Below are positions 19,811 to 32,000 of a DNA stretch of 32,000 bases, in pieces (within the stretch, counting starts at the first letter, position 1; every line of letters starts with the position of its first letter). The notes under the pieces are model-generated. The model was not told where the DNA came from. It was given only the letters and a program-made list of their open reading frames with translations, and made no database searches. Location of the stretch: assembly GCF_000145295.1 (NCBI RefSeq), contig NC_014408.1, positions 960,001 through 992,000 of the forward strand. The letters run 5' to 3'. A program made the translations under genes and the position numbers. Source of the DNA: Methanothermobacter marburgensis str. Marburg (GTDB lineage Archaea; Methanobacteriota; Methanobacteria; Methanobacteriales; Methanothermobacteraceae).

Positions 19811-19981
19811 TAAAGTTTTCAGAGAAAATGGGAATGGTAAGCCACATGAACCATATCATCTGAAGTTTTCAGAAAAACTAAAAAATGGGAACGGGTAAAC
19901 TACCCCTGAACCATTACCATCAAACTTTCCAGAAAAAAACTAAAAATTAGAATGGTAAGCTACCCCTGAACCATTATAAGC
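19811..19981. repeat. Degenerate tandem triplication (~50/61/60 bp) of the 3' end and flank of the ExbD-like gene
   Basis: Copy C (19922-19981) contains the last codons and stop of the ExbD-like CDS (ctacccctgaaccattataagc). Copy B (19861-19921) repeats ctacccctgaaccattaccatc and the flank gttttcagaaaaactaaaaaatggga. Copy A (19811-19860) is more diverged. Confidence 0.8.
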
Positions 19982-20298
19982 TTACCTGTCTTGGGGTCCC
20001 TGTAAACTGTTCCCATCTCAACGTATCCCTGACCAGACCCCGAACTGGTCTCGGGAGTGTTGTTGAGCTCCTGGCCCTTCTGAACCTCAACTGCCTTCTT
20101 CATTGCCTCCATGGTTTCCTGACGCTCCTGTGGAGTCATGTCAGCGAATACGACATTCTGCATGTTCCAGGAGAGCACCAGGAATATGAGGAAGCCCACA
20201 GACAGGACCAGCATGGCATCAACCAGGTTTGCGCTTCCGGCCATCGGGTCCTCTTCATTTTGATCCGACAGGAGCCTTCGCCGGCGTCTGAGCGGCAT
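19960..20298 (-). CDS. ExbD/TolR-like single-pass membrane protein (DUF2149-like)
   Basis: 112 aa with an Arg-rich N-terminus (PLRRRRRL). The TM segment [19 protein letters not shown] resembles the ExbD/TolR LIDVMLVLLIFF helix, and a short soluble tail follows. The start overlaps the ExbB-like gene by 44 nt; ATG 20244 is the alternative. Confidence 0.7.
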
Positions 20299-20935
20299 TA
20301 TCCATCACCTCCAGCACTGCCTCGGCCATGGTCTCAAGGTTTGAGAGGTACTCCTCATACCATCTGCGCCTGACCTTTGAGATTACGTAGGCTATACCCC
20401 CTGATGCCAGGCCCACGACTGTTGTGTCAAAGGCTATGATGATGGCCTGGGCCAGTGTATTTATATCCCCTGCACCGAGGGCTGCCAGGCCGGGCCCCAT
20501 GGGTATGAGTGTCCCCATAAGACCAAGGGTTGGTCCGAGCCTTGTCACGATGTCCGTCTTCTCGAGGCTCTTTGCAGCCTTGAGCTCCTCGTTCTCTATG
20601 AGTTTCCTTGCAAGGGCCTCCCTTGATTTGGGTCCCAGTTCTGAAGTCTCCGCAATATTTGTAAGGACCTCCTTCTGGCTCTGTGGTATCTCCATTGAAT
20701 TTACAACCTCAATTATCCTCTCAGGGGTTCCTGGATTGGAAATTGATTTTATAGCGGATTCCAGTTCCCTGATGTCAGTCCTTATTCTTCCAGAGTACTC
20801 TGACATTAGCCCGCCAAGAGTTATTATTGCATAGACCATGAATAACAGGAGCCCTGCTATAACAGGTATGAGGAGACTCTGGGAGACAACGTGTAGTGCG
20901 CCGCTCAGTATTTCACTGCCGGGTACTGCAACCAT
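20255..20935 (-). CDS. MotA/TolQ/ExbB-family proton-channel protein
   Basis: 226 aa with three TM segments. [20 protein letters not shown] matches the MotA/TolQ/ExbB channel signature. GGTGAT lies 5 nt upstream of the ATG. Confidence 0.85.
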
Positions 20936-20951
20936 ATCCTATCACCTCTCC

Positions 20952-21662
20952 TTATTCTATGAAAGTGCTCTTTCTCTTGTTAAGGTAAATTCCAAGTCCC
21001 ATGAGCGCCAGTGTCCCCAGCACAACATATATTATGGTGTTTATGCCTGGAACCGTCAGTGGCGTCATTTTCATGCTCATGGCGCTGTTCACATTTGGAA
21101 GCACAATGGCAGCTGTCAGGAAGTAGAGACCGGCAAAAAGCATGAAGTTGCCCAGCAGAACAGGGTAGGGTTTATTGATTGCTGATGCGACTCCATTGGC
21201 AAATAAATAGAAGAACGCTATGAAGGCTGCCAGAATTATTCCGGAATATTTGCCGAGTGTGATTGCTGATACACCGAGTATGGGTGATACAAGTATTATG
21301 CTGACGATCACCGCCCCGAAACAGCAGGGGCAGGGCGCCACCATTGCAACGCACGCAGTCTTTGCTGTGTCCCTCCTGTGTTCCTTCCACTCACGGAGGG
21401 TGTGCACACCGGCAAATATCAGAATGGATGCCATTATGATTGTTATCAGTGAACTGTAGGTGTTGAAGAAGCCCTGAATCGAGTTCATGTAGGCATTTGC
21501 AAGGGCTGCAAGACCATATATGCCAAGACCGTAACCCGCCGTTATTAGGGCGGCCATCTTCCTTGATAGCCCCGCGAAACCCATTGCCAGTCCAATCTTC
21601 ACGCCGAATATCAGTAAAACCGATAGGATTCCCGCCTGCCAAAGTAGGTTTGCCATGTCCAT
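20952..21662 (-). CDS. Polytopic membrane protein with intramembrane CPCC motif (DUF2162-like predicted transporter)
   Basis: Hydrophobic throughout, with ACVAMVAPCPCCFGAV in a TM helix (Cys codons at 21321-21332). I prefer ATG 21662 (AGGTG 6 nt upstream) to the track GTG 21671. The gene ends 16 nt before the ExbB-like start. Confidence 0.75.
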   Translation of the reverse strand: MDMANLLWQAGILSVLLIFGVKIGLAMGFAGLSRKMAALITAGYGLGIYGLAALANAYMNSIQGFFNTYSSLITIIMASILIFAGVHTLREWKEHRRDTAKTACVAMVAPCPCCFGAVIVSIILVSPILGVSAITLGKYSGIILAAFIAFFYLFANGVASAINKPYPVLLGNFMLFAGLYFLTAAIVLPNVNSAMSMKMTPLTVPGINTIIYVVLGTLALMGLGIYLNKRKSTFIE

Positions 21663-21692
21663 GTTCCACACCTTCTCTTTTCAACTTTATAA

Positions 21693-21722
21693 TAATTACT
21701 ATATAAATTAAATTATTACTAT
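21693..21722 (-). promoter_or_regulatory. Putative promoter of the permease/ExbB/ExbD operon: TATA box bracketed by two motif copies
   Basis: The minus strand reads ATAGTAATAA-tttaa-TTTATATA-GTAATTA. The TATA box is at 21700-21707, and the motif copies are at 21713-21722 and 21693-21700, whose motif cores start 20 bp apart. Confidence 0.4.
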
Positions 21723-21865
21723 TTCGCAGGATTAAAGCAGTATTTTAATACCATATTTCTTATTACTATTAGGCCCTAATGAGTAATAACTCATTCAAAC
21801 AATTTTTATTAGAATTAAAGTAAATCTGATATTTAATGTTTTCTAAAAAATAAATTATGGTGGGC

Positions 21866-23680
21866 CTACCTCCTTCCAGGTCCAAGGAAGTATCCCACAC
21901 CCACAAGTACCAGTATGGCTGCTATACCTGCCACTCCATATAACGGGAACTCTGTTCTCTGATTGACCGCTGAATGAGTTTCTTTCACCTCATAGGATTT
22001 CTGCTGACCTGCCTCTTCACCGGCTGAATCCTGTGAAGAATCTGAAACAACTGCCTGTGAAGCCGCGGAGGTTCTTCCAGCAGAACCATCAGCGGAAGTT
22101 CTTCCAGAGGATCCGCCACCTGTGGCTGAAGGGCCTGTTGTGGGTCCTGTGGATGGATTCTCACCTGGATTCACATCACCGGATGGTTCAGGTGCAAACA
22201 CCGACGCCCCTGTTGCCGCATAGAGTGCTGCAGTGAATTTCTTCCTGAGATCAGAGGACATGTACTGGCTGATCCACTTCATCAGTTCCCTGTCACCGCA
22301 GACCGATCCTGAACATGAAACACCATTCTCGGCAACGTAATTTCCAAGGCACTCTGCAATGAATGCAAGCTGCTCACTCCTGGCATTCCACTGGCCCCTG
22401 TTTGCCATCTCGGCAAAATGTGCCAGTATGTCCATTGCGGCGTAGGGGTTCTTTGAATAGGCTGTCTTCAGTCCAAGATTGTATTTATCTGCAACCACAG
22501 CGTCATAGTACTCATCCCAGAAGCCACTGTCAAGGAGTTCAGGCACCGTGTATTCCCATCCCACCAAGTGGGATGTGTACTTGGCTATGGTCCTTGGCCC
22601 CTGATACCCCTCATTAATGATTGCCTTGATCCACTCGGGATTCAGGTACCTTGTTCTGTATTCAATGGCTATAAACTGCTTCAGTGACATGACCCGGGGA
22701 TTGCCTGGGTTTGCATATCTCAGTACGTAGAGTTCCGGGGCCCTTCCATTGTTCATCATCTCGATAGCCATTGAAAGGCCGCCGAAGTAGTCGAAGTAGT
22801 CGTCGTTATCAACAACCCCATACAGGTTGGTGTTTCTGCTGTGGTATGCCGTTTGAATACCCTTGAGGAGTTCCTTGAAGGTTTCGGGCATTGAAACGCC
22901 CCAGGAACGTTCACTGTATGCATGGCTCATCCTGTTGAAGTAGATGTCTGCAAGTTCGCTTCTGTCGTTCCAGGTCCATGACACCTCTGTACCCTTACTG
23001 ACACCGGCACCGTAATCACCAACAGGCGGTGCGAAGATCCTTGTGATGGCGATTTCACCTGCATCAGTGGCGTTAAGACCCGCCTGCATGTACCTCAGGG
23101 TATCATTGATCCAGTGGAGTGCAATGTAGTTGGTGCGCAGAGGCTCGCTTCCCCTGAAGTTTGTATACTTGGCATCAACAAGTGTCTGCAGCACATGGTC
23201 AAGTGATGTTTTAAGTGACGGATAGGCCGCGACTATCTCACTGTATGAAGCGGCAAGGGCAACCCTGTATGCCCTGTCCATGTTGATGAGGAGCCTCGGG
23301 AACAGGTCCCTGAAGAGTCCGCTTGTTGTTACGATTGGATCCACCCTGGGCCTTTCTGTGAAGTTTGAAAGTCCAGATGCGGACCTTACTGAATTGATAT
23401 CTGCGAGTAGCTGTGATAGTGGTGTTGCCTTTATGTTTCCAGCCGAACCCGTTGATGACCATGTTGGCTCCACACCCATGAGTCTGAGTACGAAGGATAC
23501 CATTGTACCGTCATCACGGACAGTTTCAACACACCATACAACGGCAGCCACCTTCTCAGGTATGACATCGAACTGTACAAGTGCCATGTCAGCCAGCCTC
23601 TTACCCAGGTTCCATGCCGTCCTTGTCGGCATGAGGTTCTCTGATACCGCATAGAAGTTACTGCCTGTTGGAAGTGCCAT
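21866..23680 (-). CDS. CobN/Mg-chelatase-H family protein, C-terminal fragment with Ser/Gly/Pro linker and C-terminal TM anchor
   Basis: It starts MALPTGSNFY (canonical CobN LPTGRNFY), and YGVVDNDDYFDYFGGL is the CobN-type DDYYQYLGG motif. The C-terminus is a low-complexity linker followed by FPLYGVAGIAAILVLVGVGYFLGPGRR. It continues the 23658-26207 ORF after a 1-nt frame change at 23681-23684. Confidence 0.85.
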   Translation of the reverse strand: MALPTGSNFYAVSENLMPTRTAWNLGKRLADMALVQFDVIPEKVAAVVWCVETVRDDGTMVSFVLRLMGVEPTWSSTGSAGNIKATPLSQLLADINSVRSASGLSNFTERPRVDPIVTTSGLFRDLFPRLLINMDRAYRVALAASYSEIVAAYPSLKTSLDHVLQTLVDAKYTNFRGSEPLRTNYIALHWINDTLRYMQAGLNATDAGEIAITRIFAPPVGDYGAGVSKGTEVSWTWNDRSELADIYFNRMSHAYSERSWGVSMPETFKELLKGIQTAYHSRNTNLYGVVDNDDYFDYFGGLSMAIEMMNNGRAPELYVLRYANPGNPRVMSLKQFIAIEYRTRYLNPEWIKAIINEGYQGPRTIAKYTSHLVGWEYTVPELLDSGFWDEYYDAVVADKYNLGLKTAYSKNPYAAMDILAHFAEMANRGQWNARSEQLAFIAECLGNYVAENGVSCSGSVCGDRELMKWISQYMSSDLRKKFTAALYAATGASVFAPEPSGDVNPGENPSTGPTTGPSATGGGSSGRTSADGSAGRTSAASQAVVSDSSQDSAGEEAGQQKSYEVKETHSAVNQRTEFPLYGVAGIAAILVLVGVGYFLGPGRR

Positions 23681-26207
23681 GGGGTTTCCTGATGGGGTCG
23701 TTACCTGAACGTGGTGTTATGAACCCTCCGTTAAGGGCATCGAGAAGCGAGTTCATCTCTGAACCGAAGCTCTGATTTATAAGGTAAGCGTATCCCTTTG
23801 CCCTGTTAAGGAGTTCTATTATCTGTGCATCGTCTGTTAGGGTCTCCGGTGCTCTTCCCCTTATTATCTGGAGTATCCAGTCCACTGTCCTGTTGTTAAC
23901 CTCTTCTGCCTGGATCGCCGTGAGTTTATCGAAGTCCATGCCCATGCTGGAGGCTATAAGCCTCTGTAGCGAAGGGCTGGATGGTCCTCCGTCTGCGGAT
24001 ACTATGGCTGCTGCAAGTAGAGCCACCTCTTCATCGGTCCAGGTAAGGCCGAATGTGTGGAGCCCGACAGGCATGAGGGTCTGCTGGAGCATCACAAGGT
24101 AGTCATCAACCTTTTCAACGTCGTCCTCTGTGAAGTTTTCAGGGTTTATGTTGATCTCCGGGGCGATGTTTAGCTTTATAACCATGTTCCTTATGGACTC
24201 AAGGTACTCAGCCTTAAGGGGGCTTGCATCCGGTGTTCTTGAGTAGGTGTCTATAAGTGCCCTGAGTTCGAGGAGGTCACCGTAGAGCTGGGTTGTCTTA
24301 AGTGGTGGTGTTAGATGGTCAACTATAACGGCGTATCCCCTTCTCTTGGACTGTATGCCCTCACCCACACCGTCCACGATGTATATGTATACTGAGGGCT
24401 TTGTACCGGCACATATCTGTGAGAAGTCAAAGTTGCTGAGTGCGACCTGCTTTCTTGGGAGCCACTCGTATGTTGCATGTCTGCCTATGTGGACCTGGGC
24501 ATCCGCATTGAACACCGTGTTAACCCATGCATACCATGCAAGGTACTGGTGTGGTGGTGCCACGACCGTGCTGTGGTAGAGTTTATCAACGTCTGCCTCC
24601 CATCCCCTCTGGGGTTCAGGGCCAATGAATACGTTGCCAAACATTATACCTGGTATGACGATGTACTTTCTGCCTTTTCTCTCCACTGTCATGACATTAC
24701 CTGGTGGGGCGCCCCATCCATTGAATCCAGGAACTGCAAGGGACTGGAATTCATTTTTGAAGTTATAGAACATGCTCCACGGTGCATCTGTGCTCTGACC
24801 TGTCCTTGCATTGTTGAGAACTGCTTTCAGTGCTTCTGTCATGTTTCTTATGAGAACTGATGCCTGCTGTGCCCTCTCAGGGTAGGTGTTTGCAAGTGAT
24901 ATCATCTCAGAGGACCACTTATCAAGGGTATTCAGGGCTGCGGTGTATGCAGTGTCACTGGAGACGTAGCTGAGCGCGAGCTTAACCATCTCCTCAATGT
25001 AACCCACAGGACCCTCCACGACCTGTTTTCTCGCAATCGGGTTCATGGTCTGGAACCATGCATAGTATTCCTCCGCATCCCAGAGGATGATGGAGGTTTT
25101 ATTTGCAAGTTTCTCGAGTTCCCCCGGTGCCCATGTTGCAACGTTTATTCCCCTCTCAGTGAGGAGCTTCACAAGGTCATCAGCCGTTGAAGGGAACCCT
25201 GAAACACTGTACCCTGCACTCTGCAATGCCTTAAGAATTTCAACTATAGTCTCCGGGACGTTGAGGTAGCTTGCACCTATGTTACCCTTTCCCGGTGGAT
25301 AGTTGTAGTATATGAGTGCTATCTTCTTCTCAGGGTTGGTGAGGTACTTCAGCCTGACCCAGTTACCGATCCTGTCTGCAAGGTAATCCATCTGCTCCTC
25401 TATCGGAGTGTATGCGACGATTTCAACCCCTGTTACCGGGTCAATGCTCTTTGCGGGTGCTGCGACGAAGATGGGTTCAATGATCCCCTGTGTCTCGGGT
25501 ATCGCTATCTGGTAGTAGGTGTCGCTCCAGAGCAGCCCGTCATCCGAGAGCAGCCATTCACCCTCCTCCCTCTTGGTTGATATCATGGCCCTGAAGACAG
25601 GCACATTCATCTTCTCAAGTAGAGCAGCGGTCTGATTGACGAATCCTGAGCCAAGGGTGAATGTTGTGAAGCTTACAAGGGCATCTATCCTGTACCTGTA
25701 GTAATCACGGTTTGCCTCGTATTCTGCTGCGGTGACAACCCTTGATGGGTCTGCCGGGTCGTAGGTGAAGAACTTGACCATGGCTGAGTAGATGTTGAGT
25801 GGCTGTGTCCCGTTAACACCTGAATAGGCACCCACCACGGGTATGACATTCATTCCACGTGCAGTGAGTTTTGCTATTATGCTGTCAAAGTGGGCCATGT
25901 CCCCTGAGAGGAGTACGCTGTCAAGTCCCGCGATTCCAATGGTGGGCCTTGATGGGTTAAGGGGGTATGCTGCAAGGTACTCTGCGAGGCTGGTGAAGAC
26001 CCTGCCGTCCCTGTAGAGCATCTCTGCAGGGAGAGTTACGGGTGCTGATGGTTCCCATGCTGAGGGCCAGGTCCCTCCATTCATCACCGTGAAGTTCTTG
26101 AGAAGGAGTTTGAACTGGTTTTCATAGTTGATGGTCCCCTTCTTTGCATAGTAGAGACCGTAGGCTACCCATGGGGCAAGCTGGGGGTATGTGTTCACGT
26201 ATGCCAT
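23658..26207 (-). CDS. CobN/Mg-chelatase-H family protein, central fragment
   Basis: 849-aa ORF. VHIGRHATYEWLPRKQV matches the CobN HxGxHGxxEWLPGK motif. It ends ...SGNDPIRKPHGTSNRQ*, whereas the canonical sequence continues DPIRxPxxLPTGxN, which is found in the next frame. Confidence 0.88.
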   Translation of the reverse strand: MAYVNTYPQLAPWVAYGLYYAKKGTINYENQFKLLLKNFTVMNGGTWPSAWEPSAPVTLPAEMLYRDGRVFTSLAEYLAAYPLNPSRPTIGIAGLDSVLLSGDMAHFDSIIAKLTARGMNVIPVVGAYSGVNGTQPLNIYSAMVKFFTYDPADPSRVVTAAEYEANRDYYRYRIDALVSFTTFTLGSGFVNQTAALLEKMNVPVFRAMISTKREEGEWLLSDDGLLWSDTYYQIAIPETQGIIEPIFVAAPAKSIDPVTGVEIVAYTPIEEQMDYLADRIGNWVRLKYLTNPEKKIALIYYNYPPGKGNIGASYLNVPETIVEILKALQSAGYSVSGFPSTADDLVKLLTERGINVATWAPGELEKLANKTSIILWDAEEYYAWFQTMNPIARKQVVEGPVGYIEEMVKLALSYVSSDTAYTAALNTLDKWSSEMISLANTYPERAQQASVLIRNMTEALKAVLNNARTGQSTDAPWSMFYNFKNEFQSLAVPGFNGWGAPPGNVMTVERKGRKYIVIPGIMFGNVFIGPEPQRGWEADVDKLYHSTVVAPPHQYLAWYAWVNTVFNADAQVHIGRHATYEWLPRKQVALSNFDFSQICAGTKPSVYIYIVDGVGEGIQSKRRGYAVIVDHLTPPLKTTQLYGDLLELRALIDTYSRTPDASPLKAEYLESIRNMVIKLNIAPEININPENFTEDDVEKVDDYLVMLQQTLMPVGLHTFGLTWTDEEVALLAAAIVSADGGPSSPSLQRLIASSMGMDFDKLTAIQAEEVNNRTVDWILQIIRGRAPETLTDDAQIIELLNRAKGYAYLINQSFGSEMNSLLDALNGGFITPRSGNDPIRKPHGTSNRQ

Positions 26208-26794
26208 TAGACGGGATTCATTGGAGTTTTTAAGGTCGTACAGGATTGTGTTTTCGTGTCGGTGTTTCCTATGACTGATGATGGAATACCGTCAAATATT
26301 CTGACTCCATTTATCTGTGACATGCTGGTAAGGTCAGGGTCGCTTTCAAGGACCATGAATATCTTGTTTGACCTGTTGGATGCTATTTCAGGGTAGGCAT
26401 TCATGACGTTCCTGAAGTTTCCTGAGTCAAAGAGCCACTCTGCAATCACTATATCTGCGGATTCTATAAGCGCCCTGAGTTCCTCGGGGTTCATGCTGGC
26501 TATCTGCGCTGTGGTCCTCACCTCAAAGCGTACCGTCCATGTAGATTTATTCTCTGGATCGTAACCCGGCTGTGATGGATTTATGAGGTCCATGACCTTC
26601 TTTGCAGCGTCATTGGTCATCTTGGAACTTGTAGATGAATGTATCACAAGCACCACAGGGTCTTTAATCTGATCCGTGCCATTTACTGTCAAAGGATCTG
26701 TATCAACCTGCGTAGTGTTGTCTGCTGCTGCCACGGTCTGGCAGAGCATTGCCATGAGAAGAACTGCTGTTACTGTCATCAGATGTTTTCTCAT
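26207..26794 (-). CDS. CobN-like protein, N-terminal fragment with Sec-type signal peptide
   Basis: The N-terminus MRKHLMTVTAVLLMAMLCQTVAAA is a signal peptide. The remainder (VVLVIHSST..., ADIVIAEWLF..., KIFMVLESDPDL) resembles the first CobN domain. GGAGGTGA lies 6 nt upstream of the ATG. The stop overlaps the next ATG (TAATG), and the downstream frame is open for 27 more codons upstream. Confidence 0.75.
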   Translation of the reverse strand: MRKHLMTVTAVLLMAMLCQTVAAADNTTQVDTDPLTVNGTDQIKDPVVLVIHSSTSSKMTNDAAKKVMDLINPSQPGYDPENKSTWTVRFEVRTTAQIASMNPEELRALIESADIVIAEWLFDSGNFRNVMNAYPEIASNRSNKIFMVLESDPDLTSMSQINGVRIFDGIPSSVIGNTDTKTQSCTTLKTPMNPV

Positions 26795-26904
26795 AACTTT
26801 TCACCTCCTTTCATTTTTTTATATGGTATTATGCTGTACTCATAGAAAAACATTTATTATTACTGAATCAGGGATGTATAAAAAATTAGTATTATTAGAT
26901 CCAT

Positions 26905-26946
26905 ATTATTACTTAATTTATATAATTCCCTGAGAAAAGTAATAAT
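26905..26946 (-). promoter_or_regulatory. Putative promoter of the CobN-like gene: TATA box flanked by an inverted 9-mer pair
   Basis: ATTATTACT (26905-26913) and its exact reverse complement AGTAATAAT (26938-26946) flank TTATATAA (26918-26925). A third ATTATTACT lies at 26856-26864. Confidence 0.4.
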
Positions 26947-26978
26947 CGGACTGAAACAAAAAAAATAAAGGGGAGGTT

Positions 26979-29873
26979 TTATTTTCCTGCTCCGCCTCTC
27001 AGGAATCCGAATGCCACGAGACCTGCTGCAACAAGAACCCCGACGATACCGTAGACGTACCATGCTGATGAACCGCTGCCGCTACCTGAGGAGGTTACGT
27101 TTTCAACCTCATAGGCCCTGGCAGGGGCTGGTTCCTCTGTGGATTCTGAAGCAGCGCCAACCTCCGCAGGTGATGCCACGCTTGCTGAAAGGCCAGGTGA
27201 AACACCGCCTGTCCTTCCTGTAGTTCCGGTTGACCCATGGACACCGCCGGTTGAACCACCTGGAAGGCCTCCTGGAACTCCGCCAGGAATTCCGCCCTGG
27301 TTGCCGCCATCCACAGGTACCTGAGGTAGAATGTCTGCAAGTGTCCTGTCTGCAGGTATGCCCTTAACAAAGGCAAGTGGACTGCCACCATCTGCACCTG
27401 AAAGTATCATCTGAAGTTCAGATTCGGTTATGTATCTCTCTGCCTCTATTTTCACGACTGGGGCTGCTGTCATGTAAGATGGTGTTTCACCCTTGTAGAG
27501 GCTTATGAAACCTGCTATCTGTTTTTCTCTTTTGGCCTCATCGGTTGTGCAGTCACTCACATCAAACTGCGGCCACTGGAAGCCGATGATAACAGCCCTT
27601 CCAACCTTTTTGACACTGTCCCAGATGATCAGGATACCTTCAATTGAACCTCCAAAGTCATCGTCATCGGACATGGTATCTGCGCTTGGAAGCCTGAGGT
27701 TGAAGTAGGTTCCCTGTCCAGGTGAGACTCCCAGCCTGTAGACTATTGCATCGTCCTTGCAGTAGATGGTGTTACCCAGGTAGATGTAGCTCTCGTTCTC
27801 ATTGAGGGGGTAGTTGTTGAATATGTGCTCGGTTATGATGTAACCCGGTGATACACCTGGACATGCATGGTCATGGAAGAGGAATGTGAGTATCTGGTCG
27901 TAGGGCGGGTCGTGTCTCCATGCGTTTGCTATAGTCTGGATATTGAACCATCCATCCATTGCAAAGACCTTTGAAACCTTGCCTGTAAGCGCTGTGCTGT
28001 TAAGGGTCCTTGGACCAATGTCGTTCACGTATTTGCCGTCTGATGCATTGCTTGCAACTAGCTGTCCTGTTGCAGGGTCATAGTAGATGTACACCGCATC
28101 CATTGTAACTCCATCATAGCCCCTGAGTACAAATGTGAACCAGAGTGGCTTCCAGAGCGGCCTGTGGATTGGTAGGAGCGTTGCCCTGCTGAGCCTTGAT
28201 CCGAGAACATCAAATATTCCATCCCATGCCGCGCTCGTATCCTGTCCGTTGAGCCTTGAATAACCTGCTGATGTGAGTACAACAAGGTCCCTGTCATCCT
28301 TCTCAAGGTTTATACCCTTTTCCTGAAGGAATAACTGCTTAGCAAGGTTTGCAGCATCAGCACCGATCTTCTTTATCTGCTCGTAGGTCAGGGTGCCCTG
28401 TGGCAGTGGATTGTTTTCACGTGTTGCATTTGGAAGTCCCAGGCTGTCAATGTATGCCATGTCAAGGCCATGGGCCCTCTGGGCGCTTATATTGTACACA
28501 TTTCCATTCGCATCCCTGACTGTTGTGTTGCTTGCTGAACCAAGGAGATAGTAGTAGTGGGTTACGTTGAGGTCGGTAAGTTCCCTTACTATGGTGACGA
28601 GGGATGTTGGGTCCTGTTTAAGTTTACTTATGAGCCATGCGTTGAATTCAAGCTCTGTCCTCTTACCTGTCTCCTGCTGGAACTGCTGCCTCAGTGCTTC
28701 CTTGTCGAACTTCATGATTATAAGGTCGCCCTTGAGGGTTTTTGGGTTCCATCTGATGAATCCAACAAGGTTTGTGTCCGCACCTGTGGCTGTTGTGTTG
28801 AAACCGCTGTATGATCCTCCCTTACCCGGTGTTGTGTCAAGGAACATGAGCAGGGAGTCATCGTCTGAGTCGCCCGGGACACCTATGGTGATGTAGTTTG
28901 TTATCTCACCTGGAGAGCCCGGTGATGTGATGTCCATGATCGGTGGGTAGTACTTGAGCAGTGTGAGGCTCATTGCGTAACCGCTTATGGTACCGAGGCA
29001 CATGTGCCCGTGGAAGGCCGCTGCCCTCAGGAGGTCTGCTGGAGCATCCTGCATCCATGCATTGGCAAGGCTTGCAACAGGGAATGCGTGTTCCCCGTAT
29101 TTACTTACCAGAAGGTTCCAGTTGGCCTCTGTCATGTTCTTTAAGAGGTCGATGGTGTATATCGGTTTCCCATTGACTGTTCTGATGACAACAGGTGTTG
29201 TGCTTGCATTCTTGAAGAACACTCCAGTTAACGTGTTCCCCTTCTGGAGGATGAAGAACGTGTCCAGGGGATCCACGGGAGTCTTCCTGATCATCAGGAG
29301 GTTGCCCTTACCGTAGGTGACAATTCCTCGTGCCTGGTTCAGTATGCCCTCAATCACATCCTCTGATGTGTCGCCCCTGTACTTGACAATGCCTGCGGTT
29401 GTGATTACAAGGACATTTCCACTTGAGAAGTTGAGGATCTCATCTGCCTTCTTTGTTATTTCCCTTCCGAGCCTGTAGGCGTCGGTTGCATTCATCTTGA
29501 ATGAGAGGTGTGCATAGTAGTTCGGATCAGAGTTATCGTAGGGGTTCCTGGATAGTGTGAAGTGGTGTAAAATGTCCTTGTAGCCGGGTGCTGTTATTTT
29601 TATTGTGAACCTGGTTGTTTCCGTAACCACAGGGGGCTGGAAGGTTATCTTTGTCAGGTTGCTTGCCGGGTCAAACCTCTTTGTGAAGTTAAGCTTTTCA
29701 CCGTTCTCATCACTGATGTAGTTTATGTCTGGATTGATGCGGGTGTTGTCATCTGCGAATTCATACGTGACATTCACCCCCACCTCACATTCTGGCGTTA
29801 CTGCTGAAGCAGAGCCCGTCAGTGCAAAAGCAAAGAGAAGAGCCATTAGAACCATGAAATACTGTCTTCTCAT
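26979..29873 (-). CDS. Secreted, C-terminally membrane-anchored protein with two FmdE-like domains
   Basis: 964 aa. The signal peptide is MRRQYFMVLMALLFAFALTGSASA, and N-x-S/T sequons are numerous. There are two copies of the FmdE-type motif: ANAWMQDAPADLLRAAAFHGHMCLGTISGY (about 28977-29081) and ANAWRHDPPYDQILTFLFHDHACPGVSPGY (about 27840-27941). A Gly/Pro/Ser linker and the TM helix WYVYGIVGVLVAAGLVAFGFL follow. GGAGGTGA lies upstream of the ATG. Confidence 0.8.
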   Translation of the reverse strand: MRRQYFMVLMALLFAFALTGSASAVTPECEVGVNVTYEFADDNTRINPDINYISDENGEKLNFTKRFDPASNLTKITFQPPVVTETTRFTIKITAPGYKDILHHFTLSRNPYDNSDPNYYAHLSFKMNATDAYRLGREITKKADEILNFSSGNVLVITTAGIVKYRGDTSEDVIEGILNQARGIVTYGKGNLLMIRKTPVDPLDTFFILQKGNTLTGVFFKNASTTPVVIRTVNGKPIYTIDLLKNMTEANWNLLVSKYGEHAFPVASLANAWMQDAPADLLRAAAFHGHMCLGTISGYAMSLTLLKYYPPIMDITSPGSPGEITNYITIGVPGDSDDDSLLMFLDTTPGKGGSYSGFNTTATGADTNLVGFIRWNPKTLKGDLIIMKFDKEALRQQFQQETGKRTELEFNAWLISKLKQDPTSLVTIVRELTDLNVTHYYYLLGSASNTTVRDANGNVYNISAQRAHGLDMAYIDSLGLPNATRENNPLPQGTLTYEQIKKIGADAANLAKQLFLQEKGINLEKDDRDLVVLTSAGYSRLNGQDTSAAWDGIFDVLGSRLSRATLLPIHRPLWKPLWFTFVLRGYDGVTMDAVYIYYDPATGQLVASNASDGKYVNDIGPRTLNSTALTGKVSKVFAMDGWFNIQTIANAWRHDPPYDQILTFLFHDHACPGVSPGYIITEHIFNNYPLNENESYIYLGNTIYCKDDAIVYRLGVSPGQGTYFNLRLPSADTMSDDDDFGGSIEGILIIWDSVKKVGRAVIIGFQWPQFDVSDCTTDEAKREKQIAGFISLYKGETPSYMTAAPVVKIEAERYITESELQMILSGADGGSPLAFVKGIPADRTLADILPQVPVDGGNQGGIPGGVPGGLPGGSTGGVHGSTGTTGRTGGVSPGLSASVASPAEVGAASESTEEPAPARAYEVENVTSSGSGSGSSAWYVYGIVGVLVAAGLVAFGFLRGGAGK

Positions 29874-29928
29874 ACCTTTTCACCTCCTTTTATCTTTAAT
29901 TATTAATAATGTACAGAACTATAATGGA

Positions 29929-29945
29929 AGTAATAACATATATAA
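29929..29945 (-). promoter_or_regulatory. Putative promoter of the double-FmdE gene: TATA box immediately followed by the TTATTACT motif
   Basis: The minus strand reads gaTTATATATgTTATTACTtcc. The TATA box is at 29938-29945 and the motif at 29929-29936, ~55-65 nt upstream of the start codon at 29873. Confidence 0.45.
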
Positions 29946-30007
29946 TCATTTTGTTAATACCTTTACCTGTCGTGAAGGGATAAAAGTAATACTCAATTTT
30001 ACTTGAT

Positions 30008-30038
30008 AAAAAAAGGATTCATGGGGAAACCCCATGAA
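30008..30038 (-). terminator. Hairpin plus T7 terminator downstream of the NAS-like gene
   Basis: The minus strand reads TTCATGGGG-ttt-CCCCATGAA-tcc-TTTTTTT. The stem is a perfect 9 bp (30018-30038), and the T-run corresponds to plus-strand A7 at 30008-30014. Confidence 0.6.
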
Positions 30039-30230
30039 CTGATTGATGGAGGGAAAAATTTAATATCCAACACCGTACTGGTGTTACACTTATATCTAAA
30101 ATATGATGAGTATTTAACACTTACTATTTCATTTGTATTAATAATTAATGGGTTCCTGAGGATTCCACAGTAATAATCAACTCATCTGAAGTTTAATTGA
30201 ACTCAGGAGAGCTTGATTGGATTGAAGGTC

Positions 30231-30596
30231 CTAATCAGGGGATTTGAATACAAGTACAGATGTATTGTTAACCTTACCCGATGGTAGAACAATGCCTGCC
30301 CTCCTGAAACCCCTTACATCCTCATCACCTACAGGTGAGTAGAGTATGGCCCTCATCCCGGTGTAGGTCCTGTAAATGACCCTTGTATCCCCATCAACAT
30401 AGCGGTGGATGTTCCTGAAAACCCTCTCCTTTGGCTCTGCAAGGGCCGCCACAAGCACTATGTCGAATTCAAGGTCCCTTATTGCTGTCTCATCACCGTT
30501 GATTACCCTAACATCCCCTTCAAGTCCAAGTTTCTCTATGACCCTTCCTGCAAGTTCCGCCAGTTCGGGTTCAACTTCAACAACCGACACCCCCAT
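30231..30596 (-). CDS. Nicotianamine synthase-like protein (MtNAS type), C-terminal fragment
   Basis: GVSVVEVEPELAELAGRVIEKLG, FDIVLVAALAEPKERVFRNIHRYV, IYRTYTGMRAILY and LPSGKVNNTSVLVFKSPD match my memory of the M. thermautotrophicus thermonicotianamine synthase. The frame is open upstream through LTGILLASVHG to the C/G runs at 30629-30637. Confidence 0.8.
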   Translation of the reverse strand: MGVSVVEVEPELAELAGRVIEKLGLEGDVRVINGDETAIRDLEFDIVLVAALAEPKERVFRNIHRYVDGDTRVIYRTYTGMRAILYSPVGDEDVRGFRRAGIVLPSGKVNNTSVLVFKSPD

Positions 30597-31033
30597 GCCA
30601 TGGACACTTGCCAGGAGAATCCCTGTGAGGGGAGGGGCCCTCCCCCAATAAAGACTATTCTTTCACCCTCCCTGTACCTGCCAAGGGTTGCCTCATTTTT
30701 AAGGAGCTCGATGTAGCGAGGGTAAAAGTAGAACGACCCTAGCGTCTTCCACGGGTCCTCTGAGGCAAGGACCTCCTCAGCCTTTTCAATTTCAAGTTTC
30801 ATCCCGAGGTTGACGTAGAATCTCCTTATTACCCTGAGGGCATGATTCATCCCGGGATCATCAAGGATGTGCTTTGCAGATTCAAAGTCAATGGACTCAT
30901 CATGGGCTATCTCCTCAATCTCATCAAGGAGGGGGATTACGGCTTCAACGTTCATCCCATGTATCCCATAATCCATACCCTCAAGTCTTGATGCTATCGA
31001 CCTGATCCTATCCCAGTAGATGTAACAGCTCAT
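30536..31033 (-). CDS. Nicotianamine synthase-like protein, N-terminal fragment (frame lost at 30629-30632)
   Basis: MSCYIYWDRIRSIASRLEG..., FYFYPRYIELLKNE and ERIVFIGGGPLP are followed by nonsense (SQGFSWQVSMAWGCRLL...). The expected continuation LTGILLAS is in the frame of the 30231-30596 ORF. Confidence 0.8.
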   Translation of the reverse strand: MSCYIYWDRIRSIASRLEGMDYGIHGMNVEAVIPLLDEIEEIAHDESIDFESAKHILDDPGMNHALRVIRRFYVNLGMKLEIEKAEEVLASEDPWKTLGSFYFYPRYIELLKNEATLGRYREGERIVFIGGGPLPSQGFSWQVSMAWGCRLLKLNPNWRNLQEGS

Positions 31034-31875: not shown

Positions 31876-32000
31876 GCGAAAGGATTGCTTGATGCCCTGT
31901 TTGAGCTGGCTTCCGTTGATATCCTAGGAGGAATTCATGCTCAGAGATATACTTGGCAGAGGATATATAAATACTTTTTGAAAAAAAATTATTACTCATT

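Follow-up and report, generated by a model that had tools for sequence, protein, structure and literature searches.

Methanothermobacter marburgensis carries a recently frameshifted gene for an exported CobN-like protein of the HmuS clade

We analysed a stretch of 32,000 nucleotides from the genome of Methanothermobacter marburgensis str. Marburg (RefSeq assembly GCF_000145295.1, contig NC_014408.1, positions 960,001 to 992,000), referred to below as the window and numbered from its first letter. At 21866-26794, on the minus strand, lies a chelatase-like gene, MTBMA_c10550-70, whose product an initial annotation had taken for a CobN-like ectodomain tethered to the outer face of the membrane, with no AAA+ partner in sight. 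The features described are genuine, but they lie in a broken gene: MTBMA_c10550-70 is a recent frameshifted pseudogene. Judged by its sequence, it is an exported homologue of the large subunit of class I chelatases, and it belongs to the same clade as the haem de-chelatase HmuS of Bacteroidota. As the published HmuS is anchored, periplasm-facing and ATP-independent, a CobN-like protein that works outside the cytoplasm and has no AAA+ partner is already a known kind (HmuS/BtuS, characterised 2018-2026). The earlier interpretation is partly supported: its outline is right, and the work on HmuS has since overtaken it. In archaea, the nickel-linked version with DUF2162 is an uncharacterised variant. 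We lean, if only somewhat, towards reading it as a variant of the HmuSTUV module that would scavenge nickel (or cobalt) and be coupled to the proton-motive force, and that is disabled in this strain.

Gene structure and frameshifts

The 4.9-kb region is made of three open reading frames (ORFs) instead of one, with two frameshifts between them.

26207..26794, minus strand: ORF1, MTBMA_c10570, 195 aa, 21 kDa; Sec signal peptide and start of the chelatase head domain
23658..26207, minus strand: ORF2, MTBMA_c10560, 849 aa, 94 kDa; neck and domains III-IV
21866..23680, minus strand: ORF3, MTBMA_c10550, 604 aa, 66 kDa; domains V-VI, linker, transmembrane (TM) helix, PGRR
26246..26258, minus strand: frameshift 1, one base missing in or beside an A-run, at about 26252; GACACGAAAACACAA
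23676..23694, minus strand: frameshift 2, one extra base in AGGAAACCCCATGGCA, at about 23681-23691

In UniProt, c10550, c10560 and c10570 of M. marburgensis Marburg are each named 'cobaltochelatase subunit-like protein'. Their sizes equal those of ORF3, ORF2 and ORF1, and the neighbouring locus tags agree with the genes of the window, gene by gene.

ORF1 opens with a Sec-type signal peptide (MRKHLMTVTAVLLMAMLCQTVAAA, followed by DN; aa 1-24, nt 26794-26723), has a weak Pfam match to DUF3479, the N-terminal domain of ChlH, and aligns with residues 1-190 of intact orthologues; its stop codon arises from frameshift 1. The Pfam domain CobN-Mg_chel (PF02514) is matched by both ORF2 (E=8e-165) and ORF3 (E=2e-100). 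ORF2 covers the profile up to position 706 and ORF3 from 709 to 1090: as the two coverages adjoin, they are two halves of one domain. All the CobN motifs quoted at the outset are present on the minus strand. HIGRHATYEW, with H773, is found at 24491-24462 in ORF2, DPIRKP and ALPTGSNFY extend across about 23700-23650, and the CobN-type DNDDYFDYFGG is at 22810-22778 in ORF3. ORF2 also carries the VDGVGEGIQSKRRGYA segment, which holds the Glu equivalent to E660 of ChlH. ORF3 contains SCSGSVC, a motif common to HmuS (22318-22298), then an 82-aa linker of Pro, Gly, Ser and Thr (22195-21950) and a single TM helix, FPLYGVAGIAAILVLVGVGYFLG (21949-21881), that ends in PGRR. The signal peptide and the C-terminal anchor described earlier are therefore both there, one on ORF1 and the other on ORF3. 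Rfam and tRNA scans of the window gave no match.

Alignment with orthologous DNA revealed exactly two frame-breaking 1-nt indels in the gene. At the first site, ACGAA-AACACA is found here and ACAAAGAACACG (encoding TKNT) in the orthologues. At the second, AGGAAACCCCATGG replaces AGAAACCCCTCAG; the orthologues read AGAAACCCCTCAGCA (RNPSA), and the extra base splits the DPIRNP-xA-LPTG motif. Repairing both sites yields a 1643-aa protein, with trans-frame junction peptides such as NTDTKNTILYDLK and DPIRNPMALPTGSNFY. Two orthologues that are single ORFs align with this protein over 100% of its length: one of 1645 aa at 90% identity, and that of M. thermautotrophicus, 1657 aa, at 84%. From this end-to-end match it follows that ORF1, whose place in the protein had been left as a point to verify, is part of the same ancestral gene.

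The frameshifts are real, because the same sequence recurs in independent assemblies. That of frameshift 1 is identical in CP069376.1, an independently deposited, re-sequenced genome, and in SRR22315766, one of the Illumina assemblies of Logan. That of frameshift 2 is identical in CP069376.1, in the biogas metagenome ERZ925061 from ENA (a MEGAHIT assembly) and in Logan SRR22315766, SRR21993108 and SRR21993103. CP069376.1, these three Logan assemblies and the biogas-fermenter metagenome also all encode the 604-aa ORF and, overlapping it upstream, the same ORF as here. The ratio of nonsynonymous to synonymous substitutions (dN/dS) against intact orthologues is 0.09-0.105; it is so near to the 0.079 of an intact-intact pair that the inactivation must be recent.

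We had initially favoured another explanation, in which the organism has an intact gene and the reference assembly contains homopolymer errors at both sites. Each of the four frameshifts that the window holds (two in the chelatase-like gene, one in a gene resembling nicotianamine synthase (NAS) and one in a class II ribonucleotide reductase (RNR)) is at a short homopolymer, the RNR was at first taken as essential, and apart from the two sites the reading frame is clean, with a dN/dS of about 0.1. We rejected it, and now hold it very improbable, because the same frameshifts recur in CP069376.1, in the Logan assemblies, made from four other runs, and in the MEGAHIT biogas metagenome. That of the RNR, being reproduced in six assemblies, is no mark of a bad assembly either. 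In addition, the quantitative proteome tables of this strain list c10530, c10540 and c10580, and c10550-70 is not among them (PMC12350162), even though the flanking genes rank there among the proteins with the strongest induction.

Could the three ORFs instead be a working split or recoded gene, either as three subunits or through programmed frameshifting? ORF1 and ORF2 overlap in TAATG, a common arrangement for translational coupling; the CCCC run at the second site would permit +1 re-pairing of tRNA-Pro; and the frameshifts are stable across samples. The two sites, however, require opposite shifts and neither has a canonical slippery context, ORF2 and ORF3 would be without an export signal, all relatives have a single ORF, and the product was undetected under inducing conditions. 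A working gene of this kind is, to our mind, hardly credible.

Between close strains, the chelatase-like gene is far more diverged than its neighbours. When 21866-26794 is compared with the loci L002 (240-5177) and L083 (309-5429), its dS reaches 0.54 vs 0.06-0.18 for the genes of DUF2162, ExbB, DUF2149, HisAF and PdxS. In another Methanothermobacter the syntenic chelatase-like gene is only 47% identical; its product, P0033, was considered as a paralogue and rejected, being that of the orthologous locus. Such high divergence of a surface chelatase-like protein suggests allele replacement or diversifying pressure.

The class II (B12-dependent) RNR, which contains an intein, is encoded on the plus strand at 859-2981 and split into ORFs of 144 and 573 aa. 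Its frameshift, at about 1197-1203, is a G7 run one base short of the 8 nt required (KSGGGVGFSFSRLRPRGD). The six assemblies that reproduce G7 include CP069376.1, CP042937.1 (a 1.74-Mb strain) and three biogas metagenome assemblies; one metagenome contig carries the intact version GGTGGGGGC. The split is either a real pseudogene, implying another RNR, or a -1 recoding site on the G-run.

The HmuS clade and the cytoplasmic chelatases

In a PDB sequence search, the best solved relative of the chelatase-like protein is HmuS (9d26, E=4e-113), followed by CobN (1.5e-107) and ChlH (2.7e-100). With the C-terminal 287 residues, HmuS 9d26 scores E=2e-38 vs about 1e-22 for CobN and ChlH; the SCSGxVC motif shared with HmuS is located past the end of both.

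We retrieved 103 homologues, 55 of them long (1300-2450 aa) and 48 canonical CobN, ChlH or BchH. A hydrophobic N-terminus (signal sequence) and a C-terminal TM helix occur together in every long homologue (55/55), and neither feature occurs in any canonical one (0/48). A neighbour-joining tree, a distance method here applied to 1097 trimmed columns, splits the exported forms, including HmuS of the Bacteroides thetaiotaomicron type, from cytoplasmic CobN and BchH in 50 of 50 bootstraps. The split between secreted CobN-like proteins and bona fide CobN that had been suggested as a check is thus found, and the archaeal cytoplasmic CobN of locus L015 falls outside the exported clade. The intact form of the archaeal protein (about 1650 aa, e.g. 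MTH673 of M. thermautotrophicus) is predicted to hold its body outside the membrane, on a flexible linker of about 80 aa and one TM helix. The tethered ectodomain proposed earlier therefore stands for the family, all long homologues being exported by sequence. It does not stand for this genome: with three separate ORFs, it cannot be made as one polypeptide.

Published work describes HmuS as membrane-anchored at both ends, facing the periplasm and requiring a reductant but not ATP; it converts haem to protoporphyrin IX and Fe(II), and the biochemistry is known only for the HmuS of Bacteroidota (PMC12583661, PMC13227078).

In 26 family members, H773, E812 and D1329-D1332 do not vary. As to whether the porphyrin- or metal-binding residues are retained, the answer is mixed. 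The catalytic His (equivalent to HmuS His-538) and the Glu equivalent to ChlH E660 are both kept, but the haem ligands of HmuS are replaced. In place of Met-79, His-254 and Gln-299, the alignment, which is weak in this head/neck region, has Leu, Thr and Tyr. His-1209, the bis-His partner of His-538, and Glu-1212 are both Asp, which results in a CobN-type D-N-D-D-Y (VDNDDYFDYFGG) vs LSLDHxxEFMGG in HmuS. From the HmuS-specific ligand set, only His-538 is retained. The Met-rich insertion of HmuS is missing (73 residues vs 228 between aligned blocks), and there is an extra helical insertion of about 100 aa at residues 594-693.

A biosynthetic role has been proposed before. According to Kaster et al. 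2011, MTBMA_c10550-10570 and c09440 are possible nickel chelatases (PMC3087415); the gene would then encode a cytoplasmic class I enzyme, a B12 cobaltochelatase or an F430 nickel chelatase, with the unlinked MTH556/c09440 as its AAA+ partner. The annotation as cobaltochelatase subunit CobN and the CobN-type second active-site motif are in its favour. Against it, the signal peptide and C-terminal TM anchor are clade-wide and absent from true CobN and ChlH, and the protein groups apart from cytoplasmic CobN, that of L015 included. Its scores are far under every curated CobN/BchH equivalog cut-off of NCBIfam: the best model, NF004645, gives 390 + 337 bits (ORF2 + ORF3) vs a required 1619, and the ORFs are likewise under the cut-off of all the others. 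No linkage to cob or cbi genes is seen, and the partners are membrane proteins in about 90% of loci. Besides, methanogens take the anaerobic CbiX route for cobalt and use CfbA for nickel in F430. The odds of a biosynthetic chelatase appear to us close to negligible.

Membrane partners, nickel response and proposed function

Three genes for membrane proteins lie directly downstream of the chelatase-like gene:

20952..21671, minus strand: DUF2162 polytopic membrane protein, MTBMA_c10540; Pfam E=7e-73
20255..20935, minus strand: MotA/TolQ/ExbB-family protein, MTBMA_c10530, annotated 'Predicted transporter protein'; PF01618 E=4e-10
19960..20298, minus strand: DUF2149, ExbD-like, MTBMA_c10520; Pfam E=1e-24

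The last two are the ExbB/ExbD-like pair that had been noticed as the nearest energy-transducing genes. We surveyed 82 related loci, 64 of them with enough flank for the trio to be counted: it is directly 3' of the chelatase-like gene, on the same strand, in 57 of the 64, and directly 5' in 3 more. The same trio follows the chelatase-like gene in a metagenome-assembled genome (MAG) of Actinomycetota.

The ExbB-like protein is 36% identical (E=1e-40) to HmuU of L085, a B. thetaiotaomicron-type hmuYRSTUV locus, and DUF2149 is 27% identical (E=2e-8) to HmuV of the same locus type. No homology was detected between DUF2162 and HmuT of this type (BLASTP E=0.7; hhalign probability 0.4%), and HmuT has no DUF2162 match in Pfam; an equivalence of the two, despite equal size and position, was rejected on these grounds. 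DUF2149 has no Pfam ExbD match. It has nevertheless an ExbD/TolR-like layout, with a basic N-terminal tail and one TM helix containing an Asp (ANLVD27[12 protein letters not shown]). Among the Cys residues of DUF2162 (about 235 aa), C107, C116 and C117 are invariant and C114 is nearly so, with an APCPCC motif where a TM helix begins on the cytoplasmic side. This motif resembles the CPx motifs in soft-metal P-type ATPases, and may be a soft-metal site. An AlphaFold2 model of DUF2162, based on a 29-sequence alignment, has a mean predicted local distance difference test (pLDDT) score of only 56, so we draw no structural conclusion from it.

Large secreted DUF3344 repeat proteins usually come next after the module in Methanobrevibacter (53 loci; e.g. 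L054 19469-22359). Some proteins (P0041, P0044) combine the chelatase-like body with DUF3344 and CARDB domains in a single fusion.

The absence of any gene resembling ChlI, ChlD, CobS or CobT from the window is borne out by Pfam and NCBIfam. In the related loci, where all flanking ORFs were screened for Walker A motifs and then with Pfam, a search that covers genetic linkage, the expectation of no linked AAA+ partner stands for 80 of 82 and fails for two. The exceptions, Methanobacterium MAGs, each have a ChlI/ChlD-type AAA+-VWA gene near the chelatase-like gene. There (L015 15463-24489, L017 5765-14780), the exported chelatase-like gene is followed by genes for an MtrA-like protein, a fused ChlI/ChlD, an energy-coupling factor (ECF) transporter with S component, CbiQ and double ATPase, and a 1200-aa CobN without export signals. 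This operon would comprise a complete class I chelatase and an importer. Its AAA+ gene is explained by the separate cytoplasmic CobN in the same operon, which is the expected partner.

Upstream of the chelatase-like gene, and between the genes, the window contains the following features:

26979..29873, minus strand: 964-aa surface protein, MTBMA_c10580, 105 kDa; signal peptide, two FmdE-type domains, Gly/Ser/Pro linker, TM anchor
30231..31033, minus strand: NAS-like gene, frameshifted; C4 where C5 is needed, at about 30630 (30625-30635)
29874..30230, minus strand: promoter of MTBMA_c10580; AGTAATAA twice (29929, 30169), on both sides of the TATA box
26795..26978, minus strand: promoter of the chelatase-like gene; AGTAATAA three times (26857-26864, 26906-26913, 26938-26945)
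21672..21865, minus strand: promoter of the DUF2162-ExbB-DUF2149 genes; AGTAATAA three times (21713, 21760, 21782)

The FmdE-type motifs (HxHxC) of the 964-aa protein are FHGHMCLG and FHDHACPG. Its orthologue is directly 5' of the chelatase-like gene in M. thermautotrophicus, and a PDB sequence search with it returned a low-complexity match only. It shares with the chelatase-like protein an AYEV-plus-TM type of C-terminal anchor (26979-27200 and 21866-22195, minus strand): a low-complexity linker, then (A/S)YE(V/I), then a TM helix with a conserved G-x-G-Y-F. The (A/S)YE(V/I)-TM motif is found in most family members, bacterial ones included, and in none of the 303 other flanking ORFs of the loci; the module could be a sorting or docking signal. 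The NAS-like gene is the orthologue of the NAS gene that adjoins the cluster at its head in M. thermautotrophicus, and its split (165 + 119 aa) is the same in CP069376.1. Two genes of the putative metal-acquisition cluster are thus inactivated here, while the 964-aa protein and the membrane trio are intact.

These neighbours respond to nickel. In the nickel-limitation proteome of this strain, c10580 goes from about 2e7 to about 6.5e9 (about 300-fold up) and the ExbB-like c10530 from about 5e6 to about 2e8 (about 35-fold up; flat under iron limitation), and the DUF2162 protein c10540 is detected only under nickel limitation; iron limitation induces none of the three, and c10580 drops (PMC12350162).

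The promoters have an element in common. The 8-mer AGTAATAA occurs 9 times in the window vs 0.9 expected: eight copies are in the three promoters listed above and the ninth is at 31989, with none in about 1.9 kb of other AT-rich intergenic DNA of the window. In the promoter of the trio, one copy abuts the TATA box and another is inside the palindrome ATGAGTTATTACTCAT (21779-21794). The 8-mer abuts TATA boxes, its positions are conserved upstream of orthologues in three loci (L001, L002, L083), and in M. thermautotrophicus (L001) the 8-mer is also 5' of the NAS-like gene. We consider AGTAATAA a candidate operator of a nickel-responsive repressor. Judged by this shared promoter motif, the chelatase-like gene is part of the same regulon as its nickel-responsive neighbours, although its product is lost here. 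A perfect inverted repeat, AACACC-N5-GGTGTT, is found at 30069-30085, 5' of the gene for the 964-aa protein, and is kept in M. thermautotrophicus (GTAACACCAGAATGGTGTT); it could serve as a further regulatory site. A terminator-like hairpin of the upstream NAS gene is at 30018-30038.

Would the intact protein then be a functional HmuS orthologue, an anaerobic haem de-chelatase that harvests iron? Clade, topology, U/V partners and the C-terminal Cys motif are all common with HmuS, and in one Actinomycetota locus Fur, FeoA and FeoB are within a few kb. Against this are the replaced ligands and the absent Met-rich region described above, the flanking genes that answer nickel and not iron limitation, and the hemophore HmuY and TonB-dependent HmuR, both present in L085 and L086 but absent from the window and the Methanothermobacter loci. 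Methanothermobacter is not known to make haem. We judge such a role improbable.

In the variant of HmuSTUV that we favour, the chelatase-like ectodomain would work with the three membrane proteins encoded downstream, and not with AAA+ ATPases. By analogy with HmuS, it would remove, or hand over, a divalent metal from an extracellular chelate, which could be a tetrapyrrole or a nicotianamine-type metallophore. The metal would most likely be nickel, with cobalt as the alternative. DUF2162, Cys-rich and polytopic, might carry the released ion across the membrane, and the ExbB-like and DUF2149 pair might provide conformational work from the proton-motive force. The ATP-independent and possibly proton-driven role outside the cell suggested at first is in keeping with this on two counts, as HmuS needs no ATP and the partners are ExbB/ExbD-like. 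It is weakened on two others: the proton-motive force enters by synteny, and the product is absent here.

Several points weigh against this proposal. What the archaeal members act on, and whether they remove or insert the metal, is inferred, and the coupling to the ExbB/ExbD-like pair is suggested by synteny only. The HmuS and archaeal modules are only partly equivalent, since DUF2162 is not homologous to HmuT. The link to nickel comes from the neighbours and the shared promoter motif, and not from the undetected CobN-like product. Another CobN paralogue, cobN1 (MTBMA_c06860), is about 300-fold up under nickel limitation (PMC12350162); it may be the working counterpart of the pseudogene. Finally, in some Methanobacterium loci, the MtrA-like protein, ECF transporter and cytoplasmic CobN with ChlI/D that neighbour the gene point to the handling of tetrapyrroles or corrinoids, and not to the capture of free nickel.

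This last point leads to the salvage, at the surface, of tetrapyrrole cofactors (corrinoids, F430 or metal-free forms), whose metal would be exchanged before or during uptake; SEED has the term 'BtuS, metalloporphyrin salvage'. Methanosarcina homologues are named 'CobN-like chelatase BtuS for metalloporphyrine salvage'. In four Methanobacterium loci the exported gene is followed by that of an MtrA-like corrinoid-protein homologue, and in two of these the operon of ChlI/D, ECF transporter and cytoplasmic CobN comes next. The tetrapyrrole-cavity residues of the chelatase body are also well conserved. On the other side, the regulation signal in Methanothermobacter is nickel, and DUF2162, with about 235 aa and its CPCC, looks like an ion permease, probably too small for a corrinoid route. 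For the family, corrinoid or tetrapyrrole salvage is a serious alternative, if an unlikely one; it overlaps with nickel or cobalt scavenging where the chelate attacked is a Ni- or Co-tetrapyrrole.

A broader idea, which we put forward tentatively and with some doubt, is that the whole HmuS clade represents a second way to power a class I chelatase. Outside the cell, an ExbB/ExbD-like proton-driven stator would take the place of the AAA+ motor, acting on the chelatase body through the conserved C-terminal TM helix and linker in a TonB-like manner. The Methanobacteriales version would be a dedicated high-affinity harvester of nickel (or cobalt), its parts being an abundant FmdE-domain capture protein, a thermonicotianamine-type metallophore, an ecto-(de)chelatase, a CPCC permease and one nickel-responsive operator. 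If true, methanogens would have a previously unrecognised route of nickel uptake, and the role of HmuU and HmuV in Bacteroidota would be reassigned from powering HmuR to powering HmuS.

Methanogens have a large demand for nickel, set against a poorly understood high-affinity uptake. Of their high-affinity acquisition it has been said that 'little is known' (PMC10617489), and the archaeal nickel transporters given are only NikMNQO, NikABCDE and NiCoT (PMC2667541). The 2025 paper on HmuS mentions many archaeal homologues of unclear function, in species without complete hmu operons; that of the same year on nickel limitation flags MTBMA_c10530 as a possible transporter, without assigning a system. 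To these we add a conserved archaeal S-(DUF2162)-U-V module whose topology is that of the HmuS clade and whose active site is of the CobN type, with a promoter motif in common and neighbours that respond to nickel. M. thermautotrophicus has an intact gene and is genetically tractable, which makes the hypothesis directly testable. Negative results from M. marburgensis, the biochemical workhorse, would mislead, because its chelatase-like and NAS-like copies are inactivated.

Comparison with known systems

With CobN of CobNST (PDB 9uk9, 7c6o), the chelatase-like protein has in common the PF02514 body, HxGxH, the EG...KRR segment and the D(S/N)DDY(Y/F) of domain V. CobN, however, is a cytoplasmic protein of about 1100-1250 aa that has neither a signal peptide nor a TM helix. 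It is linked to cob genes and works with the AAA+ proteins CobS and CobT and with ATP; the protein of the window scores under every NCBIfam CobN cut-off and belongs to another clade. ChlH and BchH (PDB 4zhj, 6ysg) have the same fold and the same catalytic His and Glu (the E660 equivalent). In contrast, they are cytoplasmic or plastid proteins that depend on ChlI and ChlD, with a His where the clade of the window has Asp.

The downstream pair resembles ExbB-ExbD-TonB and TolQ-TolR: a MotA/TolQ/ExbB protein with a small partner whose N-terminus is basic and whose only TM helix carries an Asp. This archaeon differs in lacking TonB, TolA, an outer membrane and any TonB-dependent receptor, and its DUF2149 lacks the Pfam ExbD match. 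No gene for a TonB/TolA-type transducer or an outer-membrane client was found in the window or the archaeal loci; the energised client of the pair would be the chelatase-like protein or DUF2162.

The NAS-headed cluster recalls the nicotianamine-like (opine) metallophore systems, such as Cnt of staphylopine. Unlike Cnt, the archaeal cluster has no CntA-type binding protein or ABC importer, and here its NAS-like gene is frameshifted.

The closest system is that of HmuS (B. thetaiotaomicron and Porphyromonas gingivalis, hmuYRSTUV, PDB 9d26; BtuS1 and BtuS2 in B. fragilis). The chelatase-like protein is only about 30% identical to it, lacks the haem ligands Met-79 and His-254 and the Met-rich insertion, has an extra insertion of about 100 aa and, with Asp for both His-1209 and Glu-1212, a CobN-type DNDDY, and is encoded here by a pseudogene. 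At the T position stands DUF2162 with its CPCC, not homologous to HmuT; HmuY and the TonB-dependent HmuR are lacking, and it is nickel, not iron or haem, that regulates the neighbours. Yet the two have the same six-domain class I chelatase body and fall in the same clade of the tree, with SCSGxVC near the C-terminus. In both, an export or anchor signal at the N-terminus and a TM helix at the C-terminus turn the body outward, with neither an AAA+ partner nor a need for ATP, and the gene is followed, in the same order, by those of a polytopic membrane protein of about 235 aa, an ExbB-like protein and DUF2149.

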